From assembly GCA_963771465.1 (NCBI GenBank), contig CAVYTU010000007.1, positions 75,223 through 139,222 on the forward strand: a DNA stretch of 64,000 nucleotides. The letters are read 5' to 3'. The notes beneath the pieces were generated by a model. That model was given only the letters and a program-made list of their open reading frames with translations. It searched no databases and was not told where the DNA came from. Below are positions 6,583-37,832 of this stretch, in pieces. The position numbers were made by a program, and so were the translations under genes. The stretch's first letter is position 1. The number at the start of each line of letters is the position of its first letter. The DNA comes from an uncultured delta proteobacterium. GTDB taxonomy: Bacteria > Desulfobacterota > Binatia > UBA9968.

Positions 6583-7629
6583 ATGGCGAAAGTGAAAGGT
6601 TTTATCGACGCCGACGGACATGTGGTCGAAAGCGATGCCGAGTTGCTGGATTTTCTACCGCGGCCGTACCATGGGCGCGCTGACCTGCTCGCATTCCCGT
6701 TCTTTCCCACCCTGGACGGGTTTCATCGCCAAGCGCGGCGCGTCGCCGATGGCAAAGGCCGTTACATCGCCAAGGGCAGTTTGAAAGAGTGGCAAGATTT
6801 TCTCGATGAAGATCAAATCGCCTGGTCGGTGCTTTATCCCACCGCCGGGCTCACCTTCGGCTTGATCCGCGACAAGGATTGGGCTTGTGCGGTTGCTGCC
6901 GGATACAACAATTATCTTTACGAGACCTTTACTAAACCGGAAAAACGTTTGAAGGGCATGGCGCTGATCCCGCTCCAATCGATTCCTGACGCGGTGAAAG
7001 AATTGAAGCGCGCCGTGAAAGAACTCGGCTTCGTCGGCGCGATTTTGCCGGCGGTCGGATTGCGCCAGCCCTTCGGCGATCGGAAATATTTCCCGGTTTA
7101 CGAAGTAGCTGAGAAACTCGGTGCTTTGCTCGCCGTTCACGCCGCCCCGACACAGGGGATCGGCGTGGACAACTTTGACCGCTTGATCGAGGTGCGCACG
7201 CTCAGCCACGGTTTTGGTCAGATGATTCAGATGACCAGTATGATTTATAACGGCGTGGTGGACAGGTTCCCGAAATTGAATATCGCCTACGCCGAGGCGG
7301 GCTGCGGCTGGGTGCCGTATTTACTCGAACGCATGGACATGGAGTACGAGCACCGCAACACGCAAGTGCCGGAGTGCAAAAAGTTGCCCTCGGAGCATTT
7401 GAAAAGCGGACACATCTTCATTCATTGTGAGCTCGAAGATCGCGCCATCCCGCAGGTGGCCGAGCAGCTACGCGACGATATCCTTTTCTGTGCCACCGAT
7501 TTCCCGCACGAGCCGCGCACCGAGTTTCGCGAGAATATTGAAAAATTCTTGGCGCGGAAAGATGTCCGCGAGGAGACCAAGCATCACTTGCTGTTCGAGA
7601 ACCCCAAGCGCATGTATCCGCTGGCGTAG
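6583..7629 (+). CDS. amidohydrolase_2 family metal-dependent hydrolase/decarboxylase
   Basis: IDADGH, VLYPT, AVH, EAGCGW, ATDFPH motifs. Confidence 0.85.
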   Translation: MAKVKGFIDADGHVVESDAELLDFLPRPYHGRADLLAFPFFPTLDGFHRQARRVADGKGRYIAKGSLKEWQDFLDEDQIAWSVLYPTAGLTFGLIRDKDWACAVAAGYNNYLYETFTKPEKRLKGMALIPLQSIPDAVKELKRAVKELGFVGAILPAVGLRQPFGDRKYFPVYEVAEKLGALLAVHAAPTQGIGVDNFDRLIEVRTLSHGFGQMIQMTSMIYNGVVDRFPKLNIAYAEAGCGWVPYLLERMDMEYEHRNTQVPECKKLPSEHLKSGHIFIHCELEDRAIPQVAEQLRDDILFCATDFPHEPRTEFRENIEKFLARKDVREETKHHLLFENPKRMYPLA

Positions 7630-7787
7630 CCGGAAGCTGCGATGGGAGAACTTGCTCGACTGTGCCGAGCTCGCCAAGAATTATGAGAGGAGTGAGAGAA
7701 TATCCGTTAGTAGGTCGATAAAAAATGCTTCTGAGTCCTTTGACGATTCCAGAGCTCGTCCTGAGCTAGCCGAATGAACGAACGCAA

Positions 7788-9248
7788 TTATGATTTTGAA
7801 TTGCGGATCAGTCGCGCGTAGAAGTTTACACAGCGCTCGTAGTCCTGAATAGAAATTCGTTCATCGATGCCGTGATATCGCTTGGTGTCTTCGATATTGA
7901 GCGTTATCGGCAAGAAGCGAAAAATATTTCTTGTGAGTGCCGCATAGTGTCGCGAGTCAGTGGCGCCGACCAGCAATGCTGGTGCGACAATCGCTGTGGG
8001 TGCGGTCTCGCGAATCGTGCGCTGGAGTAGCTTGAAAGTCGGACTCTCGATATCGGACACGCCCGACGGCTCCGTGGGGATCGGCAACGCGGTGAGCTTG
8101 ATGCGCGGTTCGTCGATCACTTCTCGCACGTGTTCCATCGCGCCGGCGGTCGTCTCGCCTGGCATGACACGTAGATTGACCACCGCGCGGGCCTGGGCCG
8201 GTAAGATGTTTTCTTTGACGCCGGCGTTGAAAATCGTCGGCGCCAAGGTGGTTCGTAGGACGGCGTTGGTGAGCGGTGACGCGGTTAATTGCTTTTTCAC
8301 CAGGGGCTCGAACAACCAGAGATTGGCGAGCGTCGATTTTTTGCTCCACGCCATTTCGGCGCCGAGAAATTCGAACATTGCGCGCGTCGGTCCGCGCAGC
8401 TCGGCTGGAAACGGCGCCGCGTCGAGGCGTTGGAGCGCACGGCTCAGCGTGCCGATGGCGGTATCAGCCGGCGGGATCGAGCTATGGCCGCCGGTGCTCG
8501 CCACTGTGAGCTCAAGGCTTAAGTAACCTTTCTCGGCAACGCCGATGAGCGCCACCGGCGCCGCAATGCCCGCAATGATGCCGCTCAAGATATTCATTCC
8601 TTCGTCTAGGGCAAACTCCATTTCTATTTTTCGCGCGCGTAGTAGCTCGGCGATTTTTGCCGCGCCATGGTTGCCGCCGAGCTCTTCGTCGTGGCCGAAC
8701 GCCAAGTAAACCGTTCGCTCTGGCGCGAATCCTTCGCGCAGTAAATGTTCCACCGCCTCAAGCATCCCCAGCACGCTCGCCTTGTCATCCATCGCGCCAC
8801 GGCCCCAGACGTAACCATCAGCGATGGTTCCCGCGAACGGCGCCTGGGTCCATGATTTTTCAGTTTCGGAATCTACGGGGACGACGTCCAGGTGAGCGAG
8901 CAAGAGAATCGGTTTTAGTCCCTCGGTTTTTCCTTTCCAAGTGTAGAGCAAGCTGTGCTCGTTGACGGCTTCTTTGCCGAGGTAGCGATGCACGAGGGGG
9001 AACGATTTTTCCAAGAAAGCGTGAAAATTGCGAAATTCCTGGGCGTTGAATTCGGCGGCGGTTTGATAGGAAACGGTCTTGAAGCGAATCGCTTCGCCGA
9101 GCCGGCTCACGATGGTATCGCGCTCAACATTGATGGGCACGATGGGAGCCGCGTGTATTTGCCGGGAGGTGAACGTCGCCGTGCGCACGACAATGATGGC
9201 GCCGAGAAGTCCAACGACGCCGACAAACGCAAGAATGAATTTTTTCAT
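7788..9248 (-). CDS. M20 family peptidase/amidohydrolase (PM20D1/carboxypeptidase S-like), membrane-anchored
   Basis: LLAHLDVVP, GRGAMDDK, GHDEE, EKG, GGHSS, GATDSRHY, HG.DERI. Confidence 0.9.
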   Translation of the reverse strand: MKKFILAFVGVVGLLGAIIVVRTATFTSRQIHAAPIVPINVERDTIVSRLGEAIRFKTVSYQTAAEFNAQEFRNFHAFLEKSFPLVHRYLGKEAVNEHSLLYTWKGKTEGLKPILLLAHLDVVPVDSETEKSWTQAPFAGTIADGYVWGRGAMDDKASVLGMLEAVEHLLREGFAPERTVYLAFGHDEELGGNHGAAKIAELLRARKIEMEFALDEGMNILSGIIAGIAAPVALIGVAEKGYLSLELTVASTGGHSSIPPADTAIGTLSRALQRLDAAPFPAELRGPTRAMFEFLGAEMAWSKKSTLANLWLFEPLVKKQLTASPLTNAVLRTTLAPTIFNAGVKENILPAQARAVVNLRVMPGETTAGAMEHVREVIDEPRIKLTALPIPTEPSGVSDIESPTFKLLQRTIRETAPTAIVAPALLVGATDSRHYAALTRNIFRFLPITLNIEDTKRYHGIDERISIQDYERCVNFYARLIRNSKS

Positions 9249-30450: not shown

Positions 30451-31047
30451 GTGATCGCACAAATTAGCGGCAAGCTCGCGCAAAAACAGCCCGGCGAAGT
30501 CGTCATCGACGTCGGCGGCGTCGGCTACCTGGTGTTTATTCCGCTCAACGTTTTTTACCGTTTGCCCGACATCGGTACGCCGATGAGCCTGCAGATTCAC
30601 ACCCATGTGCGTGAGGACGCGCTGCAGTTGTTCGGCTTTCACGATGTCGCCGAGAAACAGGTGTTTTTGCTGCTCACCGGCGTGTCCGGCATCGGCCCAA
30701 AGCTGGCGCTCAATATCTTGTCCGGGATAGCCGCCGAAGATTTGGCGCGGGCGCTAAAAAATGGCGACCAGGTGCGCTTGGTGGCGATTCCCGGGGTCGG
30801 CAGGAAACTCGCCGAGCGCATGATTGTCGAATTGAAGGATAAGTTCGCCACACTGGCGCCGGCGAGTATCGACAGCACGGTCAAGCCGGCGGCGTCATCG
30901 CAAAAGATGCAGGACGCGGTTTCCGCCTTGATCAATCTGGGATATAAAAAACCAGAAATCGAAATAACCGTCCGTGAAGTTCTCAAGAACGCCGAGCTGT
31001 CGCTGGAAGATGTTTTGCGCGAGACTTTGCGGCGGATGAGCCACTAG
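30451..31047 (+). CDS. ruvA: Holliday junction DNA helicase subunit A
   Basis: GVGY, HVRED, VSGIGPKLAL, PGVGRKLAER, ALINLGY. Confidence 0.96.
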   Translation: MIAQISGKLAQKQPGEVVIDVGGVGYLVFIPLNVFYRLPDIGTPMSLQIHTHVREDALQLFGFHDVAEKQVFLLLTGVSGIGPKLALNILSGIAAEDLARALKNGDQVRLVAIPGVGRKLAERMIVELKDKFATLAPASIDSTVKPAASSQKMQDAVSALINLGYKKPEIEITVREVLKNAELSLEDVLRETLRRMSH

Positions 31048-31101
31048 CGCAGTGAGTTGGCGCTGCTTTACATTGCAGGATGCTGAAAGATGATTTTGAC
31101 C

Positions 31102-31173
31102 TGTCACCCTGAACTAACTGAAGAGTCTCATGGAGTAGAAAAGGCGAGATTCTTTGTCTCGCTCAGAATGACG
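31102..31173. repeat. REP-like element (GTCATCCTGAGC...GCTCAGAATGAC type), degenerate
   Basis: tgtcaccctgaactaactgaagagtct ... agattctttgtctcgctcagaatgacg. Confidence 0.6.
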
Positions 31174-31230
31174 ATCGAAGTCAGGAGATTTTTGACGTGC
31201 TCTATATAGTCGAAAGAGTGTAAACAGACC

Positions 31231-32256
31231 ATGTTGGACGGGCACCAAACCGACGAAGACTCAGGATTCGATTTAAGCTTGCGTCCGCGCGGCTTTGACG
31301 AATACGTCGGCCAAGACCAGGTCAAAGAAAACCTCAAAGTCGCCATCGCCGCGGCGCGGGCGCGCGGCGATGTGCTCGATCATATTCTTTTTCACGGCCC
31401 GCCGGGGTTGGGCAAAACCTCCATCGCCTATATCATCGCGCGCGAAATGGGCGTCAATATCAAAGCCACTTCGGGGCCGATCATTGAGCGCGCCGGCGAC
31501 TTGGCCGCGCTGCTGACCAATCTCGACGAAGGCGATGTGCTGTTCATCGACGAAATCCATCGCCTCAATCATGTCGTCGAAGAAGTGCTCTATCCGGCCA
31601 TGGAGGACTATGAGATCGACATCATGGTCGGCCAGGGACCGGCGGCGAAGTCGATCAAGTTGCCGCTGAAAAAATTTACTCTAATCGGCGCCACCACGCG
31701 CTCGGGCTTGCTCACTTCGCCGCTGCGCGATCGCTTTGGCCAGAGTTTCCGTTTGGATTTCTACGATGCGATTTCCTTAGCGCACATTCTCAAACGTTCG
31801 GCTGCGATCCTCGGCGTCAAGGAAGACCAAGACGGCATCGCCGAGATCGCTTGCCGTTCGCGTGGCACGCCGCGCATCGCCAATCGCTTGCTGCGCCGGG
31901 TGCGCGACTACGCCCAGGTCAAAAGCACTGGGACAATCACCAAGGCGGTGACCGAAGAAGCGCTGCTCATGTTGCAAGTTGACCGCATAGGTTTGGACAA
32001 GATGGATACGTTGCTGCTGTTAACTTTGATCGATAAGTTTGCCGGCGGTCCGGTGGGCGTCGAAACTTTGGCCGCAGCCATCGGCGAAGAGAAAGACACC
32101 ATCGAAGATGTCTACGAGCCGTTTCTGATTCAAGCCGGTTTCATTCAGCGCACGCCGCGCGGGCGCATGGCGACCGTCTTGGCTTACGATCACTTCGGGC
32201 GCAAGCCAAGAGCCGCCCCAAGTGATCCGGCGAAAAAACAGCCGAGTCTGTTTTGA
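31231..32256 (+). CDS. ruvB: Holliday junction DNA helicase subunit B
   Basis: [34 protein letters not shown]. Confidence 0.97.
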
Positions 32257-32511: not shown

Positions 32512-34779
32512 TTGGCTAGTTTTCGACCCGCAAATCAGGCCCAGCCGATGGAACCCGCGAACCCCGCCAAAGCCGTCGAAGAGCTCCGCAAATACGAAGA
32601 AACCAAACGGCGCAAGCGGGAGGGCATCGTCATCCTGGTGACCTTCCTTTTGGTGGCCGCGCTGATCTTCTTCGAGGTCCAGCTACCGGACGTCTCATCG
32701 GAATATTCGCTCGGCAGCAATATCCTGTTTTTTCTACTCATCAACGTCAACATCATCCTGCTCGGGTTGCTGGCTTTCCTGGTCGTGCGCAACGTAGTCA
32801 AGCTGATCGTCGAGCGCAAACGGCGCATCCTCGGTTCATACTTGCAAGTCCGCTTGGTTTTGGCGTTCGTCGCGCTGTCATTGGTGCCGAGTGTGCTGCT
32901 GTTCGTGATCGCCGGCGGTTTGCTGACCCGCTCCTTCGACCGCTGGTTTGACGCCAAAGTCGAAAGCGCACTGCAAGGTTCCTTGGAAATCGGCCAGACC
33001 TATTATCAAAACTCCGCGAATAACGCGATCTTTTACGCCCGTCAGTTGAGCCGAGCGATCAGCGAAGAAGGGCTCTTCGAGCAAAAGCGCAGCGCGGAGC
33101 TGAAGTCCTTCGTGCAAAGTAAACAGAAGGAATACAATCTCGGTACCGTGGAGATCTTTTCGCCGCAGGGTCAGCCGTTCGTCGTCGCGTTCAACGACAA
33201 GGTGCCGACCGGCGTGACGATCAAGCCGGAGTCGGAGTTTCTCACCCGGGCGCTGCGCGGCCTCGAAGTCACAACCACGCAGGCCTTCGGAGACGCCGAC
33301 GTGATTCGCGGCGGAGCGCCAATCCATGCCAAGGATAAGCGCATTATCGGGGTGGTGGTGGTCGATTACTTCGTGCCGAAAAGTATCAGCAAACGAGCGG
33401 CGCAAATCTCCCAGTCCTATGAAGAGTACAAGTACCTGACGTTTCTCAAAGCGCCCGCGAAGAATAGCTATATTCTCACTCTGCTCTTGATCACTTTGGT
33501 GTTGATCCTGGCGGCGACGTGGTGCGGTATCTATATTTCGCGCGGCATAACCGTGCCGATCCAGAAGCTCGCTGAGGGCACTCACGAAGTCGCCCAGGGC
33601 AATTGGGATTACCAAATCGAGTCGGGCGGTGACGATGAGATGGGCGTGCTGATGAATTCGTTCAATCACATGACCGGCGATCTGAAGCAAATCAAACTGG
33701 AGCTCGAGCGGCGCGGCAAAGTCGTCGAGATGCTGCTCGCCAATATTGCCGCGGGTGTGGTCTCGGTGGACCCGGCGGGCAAGGTCACGACTTGGAATAA
33801 GGCGGCGGAGCAGCTGTTAGGCGTCAAAGCGGCCGACGCGCTGGGAAAAAACTTCCAAGAGGTTTTTCGCGCTGACGCGTTGGCCGGGGTTCGCGAGATC
33901 GCCGACAACGTTCAGGGACACCAGAGCGTCGAGCGCGAAGTAAAAATTCCCATGCCGCAGCAGTTGCTGACGGTGGTGGCCAGCGCGGCGACCTTGCACG
34001 ACGACGACGGGTCGAGTCTCGGCTTCATGATTTTTCTCGAGGATATTACGCAGATTCAAAAAGTGCAGCGCATGGAAGCTTGGCGCGAAGTGGCGCGGCG
34101 CATCGCTCATGAGATCAAAAATCCGTTGACGCCGATTCAATTATCCGCGGAGCGATTGCGCAAGCGCTACGCGGGTATGCTGAAGGAGGACGGCGCGGTC
34201 TTGGACAAGTGCACGACGACGATCATCAAGCAGGTCGATGAACTTAAGAATCTGGTCAATGAATTTTCCCAGTTCGCGCGCCTGCCTGCCGCGCAGCTCA
34301 TGTCGAACGACTTGAACGAAGTGGTCAATGAAGCGTTGTTTCTATTCAAAGAAGGCCACAACGGTATCGATTTTCAATTTCGCCGCGGCGTGATTCCGGC
34401 CGTCGATCTCGATCGGGAGCAAATCAAGCGGGTGTTGATCAACTTGCTGGACAACGCCGTGGCGGCCGTTGACGGCGGCGGCGAAATTAGGTTGGCCACG
34501 GATTACGACCCGGCGCGGGCTATCGTCACCTTGGAAGTCGCCGACAACGGTTGCGGTTTGGCGCCGGAACTGGGCACGAAAATATTCGAGCCTTATTTTT
34601 CGACCAAACAAAATGGCACCGGGCTCGGGTTGACGATTGTGAGCCAGATTATTGAAGATCACCGCGGCTATATTCGCGCGCTGCCGAACCTGCCGCAGGG
34701 AACCCGTTTTTCTATCGAATTGCCCGTTGGAGACGACGCCGAAACGATGGAAATGTCGAAAAAGGTGCTACACTCCTAA
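32512..34779 (+). CDS. ntrY: NtrY-like sensor histidine kinase (TM, periplasmic domain, HAMP, PAS, HisKA, HATPase)
   Basis: AWREVARRIAHEIKNPLTPIQLSAERL, NLLDNA, DNG.G, FEPYFSTK, GTGLGL; start may be 32548. Confidence 0.9.
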   Translation: MASFRPANQAQPMEPANPAKAVEELRKYEETKRRKREGIVILVTFLLVAALIFFEVQLPDVSSEYSLGSNILFFLLINVNIILLGLLAFLVVRNVVKLIVERKRRILGSYLQVRLVLAFVALSLVPSVLLFVIAGGLLTRSFDRWFDAKVESALQGSLEIGQTYYQNSANNAIFYARQLSRAISEEGLFEQKRSAELKSFVQSKQKEYNLGTVEIFSPQGQPFVVAFNDKVPTGVTIKPESEFLTRALRGLEVTTTQAFGDADVIRGGAPIHAKDKRIIGVVVVDYFVPKSISKRAAQISQSYEEYKYLTFLKAPAKNSYILTLLLITLVLILAATWCGIYISRGITVPIQKLAEGTHEVAQGNWDYQIESGGDDEMGVLMNSFNHMTGDLKQIKLELERRGKVVEMLLANIAAGVVSVDPAGKVTTWNKAAEQLLGVKAADALGKNFQEVFRADALAGVREIADNVQGHQSVEREVKIPMPQQLLTVVASAATLHDDDGSSLGFMIFLEDITQIQKVQRMEAWREVARRIAHEIKNPLTPIQLSAERLRKRYAGMLKEDGAVLDKCTTTIIKQVDELKNLVNEFSQFARLPAAQLMSNDLNEVVNEALFLFKEGHNGIDFQFRRGVIPAVDLDREQIKRVLINLLDNAVAAVDGGGEIRLATDYDPARAIVTLEVADNGCGLAPELGTKIFEPYFSTKQNGTGLGLTIVSQIIEDHRGYIRALPNLPQGTRFSIELPVGDDAETMEMSKKVLHS

Positions 34780-34796
34780 ATAGATGCGGAGGAAGG

Positions 34797-36101
34797 GTGC
34801 AAGAGCTGTTGCTGCAAAAGACCATATTGGTCGTCGATGACGAGGACGACGTGCGCGAGTCGGTGCGCGAAGTATTGACCGACGAAGGTTATCGAGTCGT
34901 CGATACCGCCGACGGCACTCGGGTGCTCGAGATGATACGCGCGGAACGGCCGGAGTTGGTGCTCCTCGATATCTGGATGCCGCAAGTCGACGGCATCGGC
35001 TTGCTCAAGGAGATCAAGAGTCAGGAGCCGGAAATCAACGTCGTCATGGTGTCCGGCCATGGCAATATTCATACGGCGGTGACGGCCACCAAATATGGCG
35101 CCTTCGATTTTATCGAAAAGCCGGTATCCCTGGAGGGACTTCTCACAACCGTCCAGCGCGCGTTGGGCGAGTCGCCCGGATTAGAAGCGCAGGAAAAGGC
35201 GGCCAAGGGAGCACGCAAGGCCAAGACGGCGAAGCCAACGAGTTCACGGCCGCAATCCCACAGCGCCGCGCAAACGATCAAACAAAAAACCTTGAAAAAG
35301 AGCGTGGTGCTTTCCGGGCAGGGACTTCATTCCGGTGTTAAGACCGGACTGCTCCTCCATCCATTGCCGCCCGGTAGCGGCATACAATTCACCGGCATCT
35401 CGGCCGATGTCACTGTGCCAGCCCATTTAGACTATGTCGGTTCCACAGGTTACGCGACCACGCTGCGCTCGAAAGGCTTCGCCGTCGGCACTGTGGAACA
35501 TCTGCTCGCGGTGCTGCACTGTTACGGCATCACCAATTTGCTCGTGAAGGTGCAGGGTGAAGTGCCGGTCATGGACGGCTCGGCGTTGGACTTTTGCCAG
35601 GCTATTGACGAGGCCGGTATCGAGGAGGAGGACGCCGAGCTGGCTGAAATCGTCATCGACAAGATCTATCAGTTCGACGCCAAGGGCGGCGAATCGATCT
35701 CGATCAAGCCGGCTGACGAGTTTTCGGTTCACTATGTGCTGCGTTATCCCGCCCCGGTGGGCGAACAAGAATATACCTACCATCATCGCGGCGCGGAGTC
35801 GTTTAGGAGTGAAATCGCACCGGCGCGGACGTTTGGCTTTTTGCGCGATATCGCTAAGCTGCAAAATATGGGACTGGCCAATGGCGGACGGCTCAGTAAT
35901 TTCATTCTCATCGACGATGAAAAAATCGTCAATACCGAATTGCGCTTCCCCGACGAGTTCGCGCGCCATAAAATCCTCGATGTGCTCGGCGATTTTTATT
36001 TGCTTGGCCGGCCCATCCGCGGCGCCATCACCGCGCGTATGACCGGCCACTCGGATAATATCGCGCTGTTGCGGCAGATCCGTGAAGGGATGAAACTTTA
36101 G
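34797..36101 (+). CDS. lpxC: fusion: NtrX-type receiver domain + UDP-3-O-acyl-GlcNAc deacetylase LpxC
   Basis: Receiver: ILVVDDE, LLDIWMP, SGHG, FIEKP. LpxC: QKTL...GLHSG, TVEHLLA, EVP.MDGSA, IAPARTFG, HKILD..GD, TGH. GGAGG RBS before GTG. Confidence 0.93.
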   Translation: MQELLLQKTILVVDDEDDVRESVREVLTDEGYRVVDTADGTRVLEMIRAERPELVLLDIWMPQVDGIGLLKEIKSQEPEINVVMVSGHGNIHTAVTATKYGAFDFIEKPVSLEGLLTTVQRALGESPGLEAQEKAAKGARKAKTAKPTSSRPQSHSAAQTIKQKTLKKSVVLSGQGLHSGVKTGLLLHPLPPGSGIQFTGISADVTVPAHLDYVGSTGYATTLRSKGFAVGTVEHLLAVLHCYGITNLLVKVQGEVPVMDGSALDFCQAIDEAGIEEEDAELAEIVIDKIYQFDAKGGESISIKPADEFSVHYVLRYPAPVGEQEYTYHHRGAESFRSEIAPARTFGFLRDIAKLQNMGLANGGRLSNFILIDDEKIVNTELRFPDEFARHKILDVLGDFYLLGRPIRGAITARMTGHSDNIALLRQIREGMKL

Positions 36102-36149
36102 TACGGCGCCGGCAAGCCAGGCGCGAAACCGTTGGCGAGAGTTATTGCC

Positions 36150-36599
36150 ATGGAAGATTCCGCTCAATACCAGAGACTCTTTACCATCAACGAGGCTAAT
36201 GAACTGCTGCCGGTTCTCCGTCCCTTGGTTGAACAGATTCTCGATAATATTCGGCGGCTAAAAAGCGCGAGCGAAAACGTCATCCGAAGGGAGCAGCTCG
36301 ACCCGGAAGCGCCGGATTTGATGGCGCAGCTCACTCAAGACAGCGAGATTACCCGTCTGGTCGAGCAGGTGAAGCAGTGGGTCGAGACGATCAATGAACA
36401 TGGCTGTCAGTGTAAAGGCGTGGAACAGGGGTTGATCGATTTCCCCTGTGTGTACGGCTCCGAAGTGGTTTTTCTCTGCTGGCAGCTTGGCGAACCGAAC
36501 GTTAGTTTTTGGCATCGCATCGAAGACGGCTTCGCCGGCCGCCGGCCATTGCTCGACGGCGAAAGTTCAGAACCGGAGAGCGGTACGTCTTATCATTGA
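36150..36599 (+). CDS. DUF2203 family protein
   Basis: FT..EAN.LLP, GLIDFP, LCW..GE..V..WH....GF.GRRP. Confidence 0.88.
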   Translation: MEDSAQYQRLFTINEANELLPVLRPLVEQILDNIRRLKSASENVIRREQLDPEAPDLMAQLTQDSEITRLVEQVKQWVETINEHGCQCKGVEQGLIDFPCVYGSEVVFLCWQLGEPNVSFWHRIEDGFAGRRPLLDGESSEPESGTSYH

Positions 36600-36656: not shown

Positions 36657-37832
36657 ATGAAGCATGCCACGGCGGACAGCGCCAAGTTACTTTCATCGCA
36701 AATCAAGCAGGCAGCCCAGCAGCTCGGCTTCGAACTGGTCGGCATTTCTCCGCTCAAAGCGCCGCTTCACGAGCAGTCCTTCGCCGAGTGGTTACGGCAA
36801 GGCTTGGCCGGCGAGCTCGGCTACATGGAGCGTACCGAAGCGCTCAGGCGCGAGCCGCGCGAGCTGGTTCCCTGGGCCGCGTCGATCGTTTCCGTCGCTC
36901 TCAATTATTATACCGCCTTTGCCCGGCCGCCGATCTCCAAGACGACCAACGGTTGGATATCGCGTTATGCGTGGGGCGACGATTATCATGACTTGATCAA
37001 AACCAAGTTGGCGTCGCTGCTGGAACGCATCAACCGGCTGGCCGGCGCGCCGGTTCAAGGCCGCGCCTTCGTCGACTCCGCGCCGGTCATGGAAAGAGAT
37101 TTGGCCGGGGTCGCCGGCCTCGGTTGGATCGGCAAAAACACTCATCTGATATCGCCAAGAAAAGGCTCGTGGTTTTTCTTAGGCGAGCTGTTCGTCGATC
37201 TGCCGCTGGCGTATGACCGGCCGATCCGCGACCGCTGCGGCAAATGCGATTTGTGTCTTAAAGCCTGCCCGACCAACGCTTTCGTCGGGCCGTACATTCT
37301 CGACGCGCGCCGCTGTATTTCTTATCTAACCATCGAACTTAAAGGCTTCATGCCGCGCCACCTGCGTCCGCTGGTGGGCAATCACATTTTCGGCTGCGAT
37401 ATCTGCCAAGACGTTTGCCCCTATAACGTTAAAGCTCGAGAGACGGCGGAAAATACCTTCGGTCCACGCCCGGGTCTGTACGCGCCGCAACTCATTCCAT
37501 TGCTCTCGCTCAGCGCCGAAGAGTTCCGCCAGCGTTTCCGTGGCAGCCCGATCCGGCGCGCCAAGCGGCGCGGTTTTCTCCGTAACGTTGCCGTCGCGCT
37601 CGGCAACATCGGCAGTGTCGAAGCTGTTCCAGCGTTAGTTTATGCGCTCGATGATAACGAACCGTTGGTGCGCGGCCACGTTGCCTGGGCCTTGGGTCAG
37701 ATTGGATCTACTTTAGCCGTTGCAGCGTTGCAGCGACGGTTGCAACTTGAAACCGATCCGGCAGTGCGCGCTGAGATTGACGCGGCCATCGATCATTTGG
37801 GCGCAGATACCGGCGTGCTCAAGCGCGAATAG
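36657..37832 (+). CDS. queG: epoxyqueuosine reductase
   Basis: SRYAWG.DYH, VDSAPV.ER, GLGWIGKN, CGKC..C...CPT, CISYLTIE, GCDICQ.VCP; HEAT-repeat C-terminus. Confidence 0.95.
   Translation: MKHATADSAKLLSSQIKQAAQQLGFELVGISPLKAPLHEQSFAEWLRQGLAGELGYMERTEALRREPRELVPWAASIVSVALNYYTAFARPPISKTTNGWISRYAWGDDYHDLIKTKLASLLERINRLAGAPVQGRAFVDSAPVMERDLAGVAGLGWIGKNTHLISPRKGSWFFLGELFVDLPLAYDRPIRDRCGKCDLCLKACPTNAFVGPYILDARRCISYLTIELKGFMPRHLRPLVGNHIFGCDICQDVCPYNVKARETAENTFGPRPGLYAPQLIPLLSLSAEEFRQRFRGSPIRRAKRRGFLRNVAVALGNIGSVEAVPALVYALDDNEPLVRGHVAWALGQIGSTLAVAALQRRLQLETDPAVRAEIDAAIDHLGADTGVLKRE

Follow-up and report, generated by a model that had tools for sequence, protein, structure and literature searches.

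A receiver-LpxC fusion protein encoded next to an NtrY-type kinase: a candidate two-component system acting directly on lipid A synthesis in Binatia

LpxC carries out the committed step in making lipid A, a step that is essential, toxic when excessive and a major antibiotic target, and its control outside the enterobacteria is an open question. A locus of an uncultured delta proteobacterium (Desulfobacterota; Binatia; UBA9968) raises this question anew. It lies in a stretch of 64,000 nucleotides, hereafter the window, which corresponds to positions 75,223 to 139,222 of contig CAVYTU010000007.1 (assembly GCA_963771465.1). There, the gene of an NtrY-type sensor histidine kinase is followed by a gene that joins an NtrX-type receiver (REC), through a linker, to LpxC. 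Could a kinase act in this case on the enzyme itself? Our reading, to which we give a probability of roughly two in three, is that the two genes form a two-component system with an enzyme as response regulator, in which phosphorylation of Asp58 by the kinase would control LpxC post-translationally. Phosphotransfer from the kinase, the effect on LpxC and the direction of this effect are what we infer here.

The initial annotation, made from the letters of the window, had described an NtrX-type receiver with intact motifs, an in-frame Lys/Ala/Ser linker of about 40 residues and a complete LpxC with its zinc-binding and catalytic motifs. All of these are present in the open reading frames (ORFs), Pfam matches and alignments, the linker being 36 residues long (ESPGLEAQEKAAKGARKAKTAKPTSSRPQSHSAAQT). 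Response_reg (PF00072) matches residues 10-119 (E 8e-32, 110.1 bits vs a cutoff of 30.2) and LpxC (PF03331) residues 163-428 over profile positions 1-266 of 268 (E 1e-81, 274 bits), and the NCBIfam lpxC equivalog TIGR00325 scores 246.1 bits for a cutoff of 187.25. The receiver keeps VDDE (D14/D15), LLDIWMP (D58), VSGHG (S86) and IEKP (K108), with F105 as switch aromatic, and the enzyme keeps TVEH (E234/H235), HKILD (H391/K392/D395), D399 and TGH (H418). Following work on the LpxC of Escherichia coli and A. aeolicus, we take these to include the zinc ligands (His, His, Asp) and the catalytic Glu and His. The nearest solved receiver is that of Brucella NtrX (4d6x/5m7n, E about 1e-29 to 1e-30), and the LpxC part aligns with the solved LpxC 6moo (E 1e-51), with matching metal-binding and catalytic motifs. 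No AAA+ or helix-turn-helix (HTH) domain was found in the fusion protein by the Pfam scan, and its score against the NtrX equivalog NF051870 is 143 bits for a cutoff of 600, with the REC part alone matched. Judged by the phylogeny of its receiver, the protein is derived from NtrX, yet it is not an NtrX.

The kinase shows five domains, each above its own cutoff: NtrY_N (residues 40-304, 31.5 bits, cutoff 23.2), HAMP (342-392), PAS (408-512), HisKA (524-592) and HATPase_c (634-739). Its NtrY_N region is membrane-spanning with an extracytoplasmic part, and the H-box of HisKA reads AHEIKNPLTPI. Only 17 nt, which contain the Shine-Dalgarno sequence, separate the kinase gene from the GTG start of the fusion gene at 34797 (Table 1).

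Table 1. Features of the kinase and fusion genes (positions within the window).
Feature	Position	Strand	Basis
NtrY-type sensor histidine kinase gene, 755 aa	32512..34779	+	ORF and Pfam
Kinase stop codon	34777-34779	+	read from sequence
Shine-Dalgarno GGAGGA, 3 nt 5' of the GTG start of the fusion gene	34788..34793	+	read from sequence
REC-linker-LpxC fusion gene, 434 aa plus stop codon	34797..36101	+	ORF, Pfam and NCBIfam
Receiver (REC), NtrX type, residues 8-124	34818..35168	+	PF00072, nearest structures, tree
Asp58 codon, predicted phospho-acceptor	34968..34970	+	invariant across alignments
Linker, residues 125-160 (36 aa), Ala/Lys/Ser-rich, predicted disordered	35169..35276	+	AlphaFold2 pLDDT, alignment
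LpxC domain (UDP-3-O-acyl-GlcNAc deacetylase), residues 161-430	35277..36086	+	PF03331, TIGR00325, 6moo alignment

The host is a soil bacterium known from a metagenome-type assembly (6.9 Mb, 19 contigs, 99.4% complete). With an estimated contamination of 6.3%, and with the reading frame broken or stopped between REC and LpxC in 5 of the 70 related loci that hold both parts, one could suppose that a separate receiver gene and lpxC were wrongly joined in assembly or binning. This explanation is refuted for practical purposes. Both domains occur in all of the 120 best protein clusters (76-98% identity; ENA, JGI, NCBI and Logan) and in 100% of the members of at least 17 ESM Atlas clusters of at least 50 members each. 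Such agreement goes far beyond what chance would give. Near-identical DNA was found in 14 runs from 11 studies, mainly of soil, and contigs from two other studies cover positions 34947-35779 and 34590-35496 with at most two substitutions and zero indels, so that the kinase end, REC, linker and LpxC are all spanned. The chimera considered by the initial annotation is thereby dismissed, and the architecture that it proposed to search for turns out to be widespread: the fusion is carried by hundreds of independent assemblies.

Among 79 named loci from metagenome-assembled genomes (MAGs), 63 are in-frame fusions, 5 show the frame break or stop mentioned above, 2 are startless by the rule used and 9 are cut or are not fusions. 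In the five broken loci (L047, L075, L078, L083 and L084), REC and LpxC lie in different frames or are separated by a stop; three of them come from one long-read MAG series, for which indel errors are plausible and pseudogenes possible. Four Binatia-type fusions in their typical neighbourhood come under the titles Mycobacterium sp., Enterobacteriaceae, Chloroflexota and Verrucomicrobiia (L046, L087, L082 and L027, respectively), which are probably binning or labelling errors and not a sign of a wide host range.

Within the genus and order of the window's host, LpxC was found in 40 of 41 genomes, in almost every case as a single match whose open frame has the size of a fusion; the count includes the unpublished genome G005, and the only miss (G020) is 91% complete. 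Open frames of 575-996 aa around lpxC in genomes of the same order, considered as longer fusions, were rejected, being stop-to-stop artefacts that a high GC content produces. When 301 genomes were sampled evenly from the window's GTDB phylum, the best 150 matches included fusion-clade LpxC in 76 genomes: 45 co-linear and full-length, 6 short with the receiver aligned separately and 25 in open frames of 554-837 aa. The remaining 74 of the best 150 matches are LpxC of stand-alone size, with 36-45% identity.

The initial annotation had asked whether this is the genome's only lpxC, and a profile search of the whole genome returned the fusion as the single LpxC match. The genes lpxB, lpxK and lpxD are present in one copy each, clustered on a separate contig (C4). 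As far as the genome can tell, the fusion is the cell's LpxC, placed within the lipid A pathway and with a predicted enzyme activity. The kinase is likewise the single NtrY_N match in the genome, in which no NtrX equivalog above cutoff was found and which encodes 13 generic full-length NtrC-family regulators.

Where such a protein came from is suggested by its relatives within the phylum, which can be arranged from unfused operons, through a long form of the fusion, to the short form found in the window. In all of the six extended unfused loci, the gene order is (ruvB)-lpxC-DUF4390-ntrY-ntrX, and in 20 of 34 unfused genomes lpxC is followed by ntrY within 2.5 kb. The regulator of the unfused locus consists of REC, a sigma-54 AAA+ domain (252 bits), lid and HTH_8, and carries GAFTGA or GSFTGA in the three cases examined. 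A sigma-54 -24/-12 element, defined as TGGCAC-N5-TTGC with at most one mismatch (3 sites on both strands of the 64-kb window), occurs in the 105 nt upstream of lpxC in 6 of 13 unfused cases; it was found upstream of the kinase gene in none of 61 fused loci and upstream of none of 20 orphan fusion genes. The hallmarks of a sigma-54 activator of lpxC (GAFTGA, AAA+ and sigma-54 promoter) are absent from the protein and the operon of the window.

Long fusions consist of REC, AAA+ (74-132 bits), lid and LpxC. All 18 have kept the Walker A motif, and all 18 have lost both the GAFTGA loop and the Walker B glutamate. A segment that aligns to the HTH of NtrX remains in 16 of the 18, with Pfam HTH_8 under its cutoff in the six tested (one at 16.6 bits), and this segment would be a relic, not a demonstrated DNA-binding domain. 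In the short form, the linker alone takes the place of the AAA+/HTH module.

We built a tree of the LpxC domain by a quick search without bootstrap from 76 rows, namely 42 short forms, 18 long forms and 16 stand-alone enzymes including three distant outgroups. All fused domains fall on one side of a branch whose stem measures 0.64 and whose Shimodaira-Hasegawa-like approximate likelihood ratio test (SH-aLRT) value is 99. The tree leaves the base of this fused clade unresolved and mixes long with short forms, which requires 3-4 changes. This picture fits a single fusion, after which the AAA+ module was lost repeatedly; the direction of loss is taken from domain logic and the series of decay, not from the root of the tree. 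In the receiver tree (119 columns), the receivers of the fusions and of operon NtrX proteins are separated from the other regulators of the genome (SH-aLRT 99), and resolution inside the NtrX/fusion group is poor. How lpxC arrived 3' of ntrX is a matter of conjecture; a tandem duplication of lpxC-ntrY-ntrX followed by a deletion would produce this order. At the unfused locus L146, ntrX is followed by the gene (6704-8536) of a Ser/Thr protein kinase that has PEGA domains.

A system dedicated to lpxC is known from Desulfovibrio. According to Rajeev et al. (2011, PMC3333781), lpxC is the single target of the D. vulgaris regulator DVU2934, whose gene accompanies that of the kinase DVU2931, and in S. 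fumaroxidans lpxC stands immediately upstream of the operon orthologous to theirs. In a kinase mutant of D. alaskensis, lpxC is described as the only strongly up-regulated gene, and it has a sigma-54 promoter (Kuehl et al. 2014, PMC4045070); DVU2934 is listed elsewhere as a GAFTGA regulator of lipid A synthesis (PMC4641369). As in the window, the Desulfovibrio pair (DVU2931/DVU2934 in D. vulgaris; Dde_3000/Dde_3003 in D. alaskensis) brings together a kinase and a protein with an NtrC-family receiver; the only target identified for the Desulfovibrio pair is lpxC. The unfused relatives of the fusion match the Desulfovibrio and S. fumaroxidans system in their lpxC-DUF4390-ntrY-ntrX order, their GAFTGA-type regulators and the sigma-54 promoter on lpxC. 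The difference lies in the output: control in Desulfovibrio is transcriptional, via sigma-54 and a DNA site, whereas in the window AAA+, HTH and promoter are gone and the receiver is joined to LpxC.

The alphaproteobacterial NtrYX systems, cited by the initial annotation as a precedent for envelope control, are a second point of comparison. In Rhodobacter sphaeroides, loss of NtrYX is reported to raise lpxC mRNA 8.8-fold and to increase lipopolysaccharide (PMC7240162; PMC12444477), and the passages of the first study on lpxC give no NtrX site at this gene and treat the effect as indirect (PMC7240162). Alphaproteobacterial NtrYX is one closest precedent; the lpxC-only pair of Desulfovibrio, which the initial annotation did not mention, is another. 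NtrY of R. sphaeroides, Caulobacter crescentus and Brucella has the same NtrY_N-HAMP-PAS-HisKA-HATPase plan as the window kinase. Alphaproteobacterial NtrX, in contrast to the AAA+- and HTH-free fusion protein, binds DNA and has a regulon of dozens of genes. By analogy, the Desulfovibrio and Rhodobacter data would say only that the ancestral systems modulate lpxC dosage.

We built an alignment of short forms from the window, 46 MAG loci and 17 members of the phylum sample (64 rows, with identities down to 40%). Two loci truncated by contig ends (L025 and L062) were omitted, as were three that closely resemble existing rows (L027, L044 and L056). D14, D15, D58, S/T86 and K108 are invariant in all 64, with F105 at 90% or more, and so are E234, H235, H391, K392, D395, D399 and H418 of LpxC. 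In another set of 64 sequences (52 short and 12 long forms), the same receiver residues, F105 included, are invariant throughout. REC and LpxC each have a mean pairwise identity of 0.61, against 0.11 in the linker, which is between 22 and 61 aa long. On these alignments, both halves are intact and equally constrained. The ancestral Met before the LpxC N-terminus (IKQ.TL) is a start codon in only 3 of the 64 sequences, so separate translation of LpxC is not a conserved option.

These figures bear on the idea that the receiver is a constitutive structural or dimerisation relic, its phosphorylation being without effect and LpxC being regulated by other means. Atypical receivers that work independently of phosphorylation do exist, ChxR being an example, and phosphorylation of the present receiver is a prediction. 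Such receivers, however, usually lose active-site residues, and here the five are invariant; moreover, REC is constrained as much as the essential enzyme to which it is attached, and a dedicated kinase has been kept in single copy despite the loss of the DNA-binding regulator. We consider a relic very unlikely.

A control by phosphorylation also calls for a kinase partner. An NtrY orthologue (E 1e-70 or better) is present in 273 of the 301 phylum genomes, almost always single. Of the 87 fused loci whose upstream sequence extends for 2.4 kb or more, 67 have the kinase next to the fusion; this set is biased to close relatives of the window. In the phylum sample, ntrY is the gene directly upstream in 9 of the 32 genomes with a short fusion and in 10 of the 21 with a long one; the nine short-form cases comprise members of the window's family and class and a single further genome. 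Within the window's class, the kinase is adjacent in all ten sampled genomes, counting the window's own and G116. Five genomes with a non-adjacent fusion were examined, and each has exactly one NtrY_N kinase, beside which no receiver or AAA+ gene was found in any of the five; the neighbours of these orphan kinases include NAD kinase, a ParB-like protein and DctM. A single kinase without regulator and a distant fusion look like complementary orphans.

The same data can be turned around by supposing a reverse or sideways flow, in which LpxC would report the occupancy of its substrate or product and the receiver would be a phosphate sink or competitor that tunes NtrY signalling to an unlinked regulator. 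Kinase and fusion are indeed unlinked in many lineages, and the 13 NtrC-family regulators could in principle take phosphate. We regard this flow as highly improbable, considering that the ten best NtrC-family receivers of the window's own genome lie outside the NtrX/fusion receiver clade (at the SH-aLRT of 99 given above), that none of the five orphan-kinase loci has an adjacent regulator, and that a pure sink would not need an intact, sole and catalytically complete LpxC.

Several observations weigh against direct control of LpxC by the kinase. The conserved ntrY neighbour that the initial annotation looked for holds for the window's class, and in the phylum sample the kinase is on another contig for 23 of the 32 short fusions and 11 of the 21 long ones; outside that class, the sole ground for a partnership would be that both genes are orphans. 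The genome G074 has a stand-alone lpxC beside the kinase plus a fusion elsewhere, an example of a carrier in which the fusion has a second LpxC beside it in the cell. The Desulfovibrio proteins are putative orthologues, linked to the present ones through architecture and synteny and not through sequence. To the frame breaks in five loci must be added that every known fusion carrier is uncultured. Finally, two metatranscriptome libraries contain perfect contig matches to 34532-34879 (the kinase/REC junction), 34911-35268 and 35317-35558, which are only a hint of expression, given that libraries of this kind may contain contaminating DNA; stretches of the locus that RNA contigs do not cover and the runs X18-X20 (small word shares) were not used. 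With adjacency limited to some lineages, the initial interpretation is nevertheless supported in silico.

In G074, the stand-alone copy is part of a regulator-less lpxC-ntrY-lpxK cluster (L152, contig C33) and the REC-LpxC fusion (L121) is on contig C11. This fusion is fast-evolving, with very long branches in both the LpxC and the receiver trees, and a genome with two lpxC genes is possibly an evolutionary intermediate. Another peculiarity was seen in the families f27 (G101, G171, G203, G059 and G321) and f53 (G086 and G158), where the kinase match crosses one in-frame stop, TGA in f27 and TAA in f53, into a frame of about 1208-1217 aa. In these families ntrY and the downstream regulator seem to share one frame with a single stop, consistently within each family, which could be coincidence, read-through or recoding.

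How might a phosphorylated receiver act on LpxC? AlphaFold2 (AF2) predicted the window protein, from the 64-row alignment, with a mean predicted local distance difference test (pLDDT) value of 87.2 and a predicted template modelling score (pTM) of 0.85; for a 47%-identical homologue from a lineage with unlinked kinase, the values are 89.2 and 0.87. The linker is the sole disordered part in both models, with a pLDDT below 50 for residues 127-157 in the window protein. By our arithmetic, pTM would have a ceiling of about 0.7 if the approximately 155 non-LpxC residues were randomly placed relative to LpxC, and both models exceed it. We take this as a hint, at the level of a model, of a defined arrangement of REC and LpxC. 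A complex prediction with REC (1-126) and LpxC (158-434) as separate chains, run with no controls, gave a score of 0.01 (mark 0.32) and speaks neither for nor against it.

Phosphorylation could alternatively control LpxC turnover, the receiver being a phospho-dependent degron or adaptor-binding module for delivery to FtsH, Lon or ClpXP. LpxC would then still be governed by proteolysis, as in E. coli, with a two-component system as the input. RssB and CpdR are receiver-type precedents for phospho-dependent delivery to proteolysis. In E. coli, LpxC proteolysis uses a C-terminal degron and membrane adaptors; the fusion protein stops directly past the LpxC fold, without a C-terminal tail, and its disordered Lys/Ala-rich linker could be a protease entry site. 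Proteolysis of LpxC through FtsH/LapB/YejM in E. coli, and possibly through Lon in some alphaproteobacteria, is covered by a review (PMC12444477), and its post-translational nature likens it to the control proposed here. The linker, however, is conserved neither in sequence nor in length, which is not what a recognised degron looks like; the high whole-chain confidence of the models better fits a contact between the domains, and no adaptor gene is conserved beside the fusion. Turnover seems to us unlikely as the mode of control, and by analogy with other response regulators we favour a phosphorylation-sensitive intramolecular contact or dimerisation over phospho-dependent proteolysis.

The analogy is with enzyme-output response regulators, in which phosphorylation of the receiver controls the enzyme as a general principle. 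CheB (REC-methylesterase), PleD and WspR (REC-GGDEF) and RpfG (REC-HD-GYP) have, like the fusion, a receiver at the N-terminus that a flexible linker connects to a C-terminal catalytic domain; REC-HD-GYP architectures are among those discussed in a preprint (bioRxiv 10.1101/2021.11.05.467447). The outputs of these regulators act on signalling molecules or chemoreceptors, whereas LpxC as an output performs a step that is essential and commits to a bulk biosynthetic pathway. Its receiver might block the active site, as in CheB, or bring about dimerisation, as in PleD. Natural fusions of LpxC are otherwise represented by LpxC-FabZ of Bacteroidota and others (PRK13188), which appeared as a secondary NCBIfam match of the window protein and occurs in the Bacteroidota MAG loci L090 and L091 (open frames of 499 and 468 aa). 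There, the partner is a C-terminal metabolic enzyme of the same pathway's supply line; in the window, it is an N-terminal signalling domain.

Direct control of LpxC by the kinase would then work as follows. The membrane kinase would sense an envelope, periplasmic or PAS-borne signal and phosphorylate Asp58 of the receiver, which the flexible linker tethers to the cell's only LpxC. The phospho-state of the receiver would set LpxC output, either catalysis (via intramolecular contact or dimerisation) or possibly stability, and lipid A flux would follow the signal without a transcription step. REC and LpxC are kept in all fused forms, the AAA+ module, HTH and promoter have proved dispensable and the kinase has been kept, so the simplest reading is that phosphorylated D58 acts on LpxC. 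Outer-membrane synthesis is probably switched at the protein, and not via lpxC transcription as in the relatives. As to origin, an ancestral system dedicated to lpxC probably had its regulator fused to LpxC in one lineage, the fused regulator then losing the sigma-54 contact loop, the ATPase glutamate and the DNA-binding helix, and finally the whole AAA+ module. Put in its most specific and more tentative form, which may be right but to which we would not yet commit ourselves, the locus would be a CheB-like switch on an essential enzyme, made by short-circuiting an lpxC-only kinase/sigma-54 pair and discarding its promoter, ATPase and DNA-binding parts.

Directly 5' of the kinase lie ruvA and ruvB (30451-32256), and ruvB is also found 5' of lpxC in the unfused loci L146 and L147 and 5' of the orphan kinase in L157; from gene order, ruvB is a stable anchor of this neighbourhood across the phylum. 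The fusion is followed by a DUF2203 gene (36132-36599) and by queG, for epoxyqueuosine reductase (36657-37832). This pair is kept 3' of the fusion in close relatives (about 69% identity and above), not in distant fusion loci, and nothing ties its genes to the kinase-fusion system. Elsewhere in the genome, two ORFs of 453 and 484 aa (L104 on contig C15 and L105 on C13) have an N-terminal zinc ribbon that matches the LapB model. The search with this model (PF18073) also matches 11 of 14 control genomes, Gram-positives included, and was discarded as uninformative on a LapB-type adaptor.

The initial annotation had not recognised such a circuit as described, and our literature searches likewise found no paper on a receiver-LpxC fusion. 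A 2025 review of lipid A regulation (PMC12444477) covers proteolysis, a few protein partners and indirect transcriptional effects, and the words "receiver" and "fusion" are absent from it. Going by the architectures compared here, LpxC appears unprecedented as an output domain of response regulators and would represent a new mode of LpxC control.

Thousands of sequences from the environment contain the receiver-LpxC fusion, which would make direct control by a two-component system one of the ways in which LpxC is governed. If the more tentative reading, the CheB-like switch, is true, an envelope signal would control outer-membrane lipid flux on a scale of seconds, and a third principle of LpxC control would stand beside proteolysis and transcription. 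Kinase and fusion make up a self-contained two-protein system for rebuilding the coupling of signal to enzyme in vitro. The natural signal of NtrY-type kinases is still debated, and this work points to a tie with lipid A demand. The graded series within one phylum, from the unfused sigma-54 operon, through the long fusion with decayed AAA+/HTH, to the minimal REC-LpxC, makes the evolution of a regulatory short-circuit unusually traceable, and it would document a shift from transcriptional to post-translational control in which the same sensor was kept.

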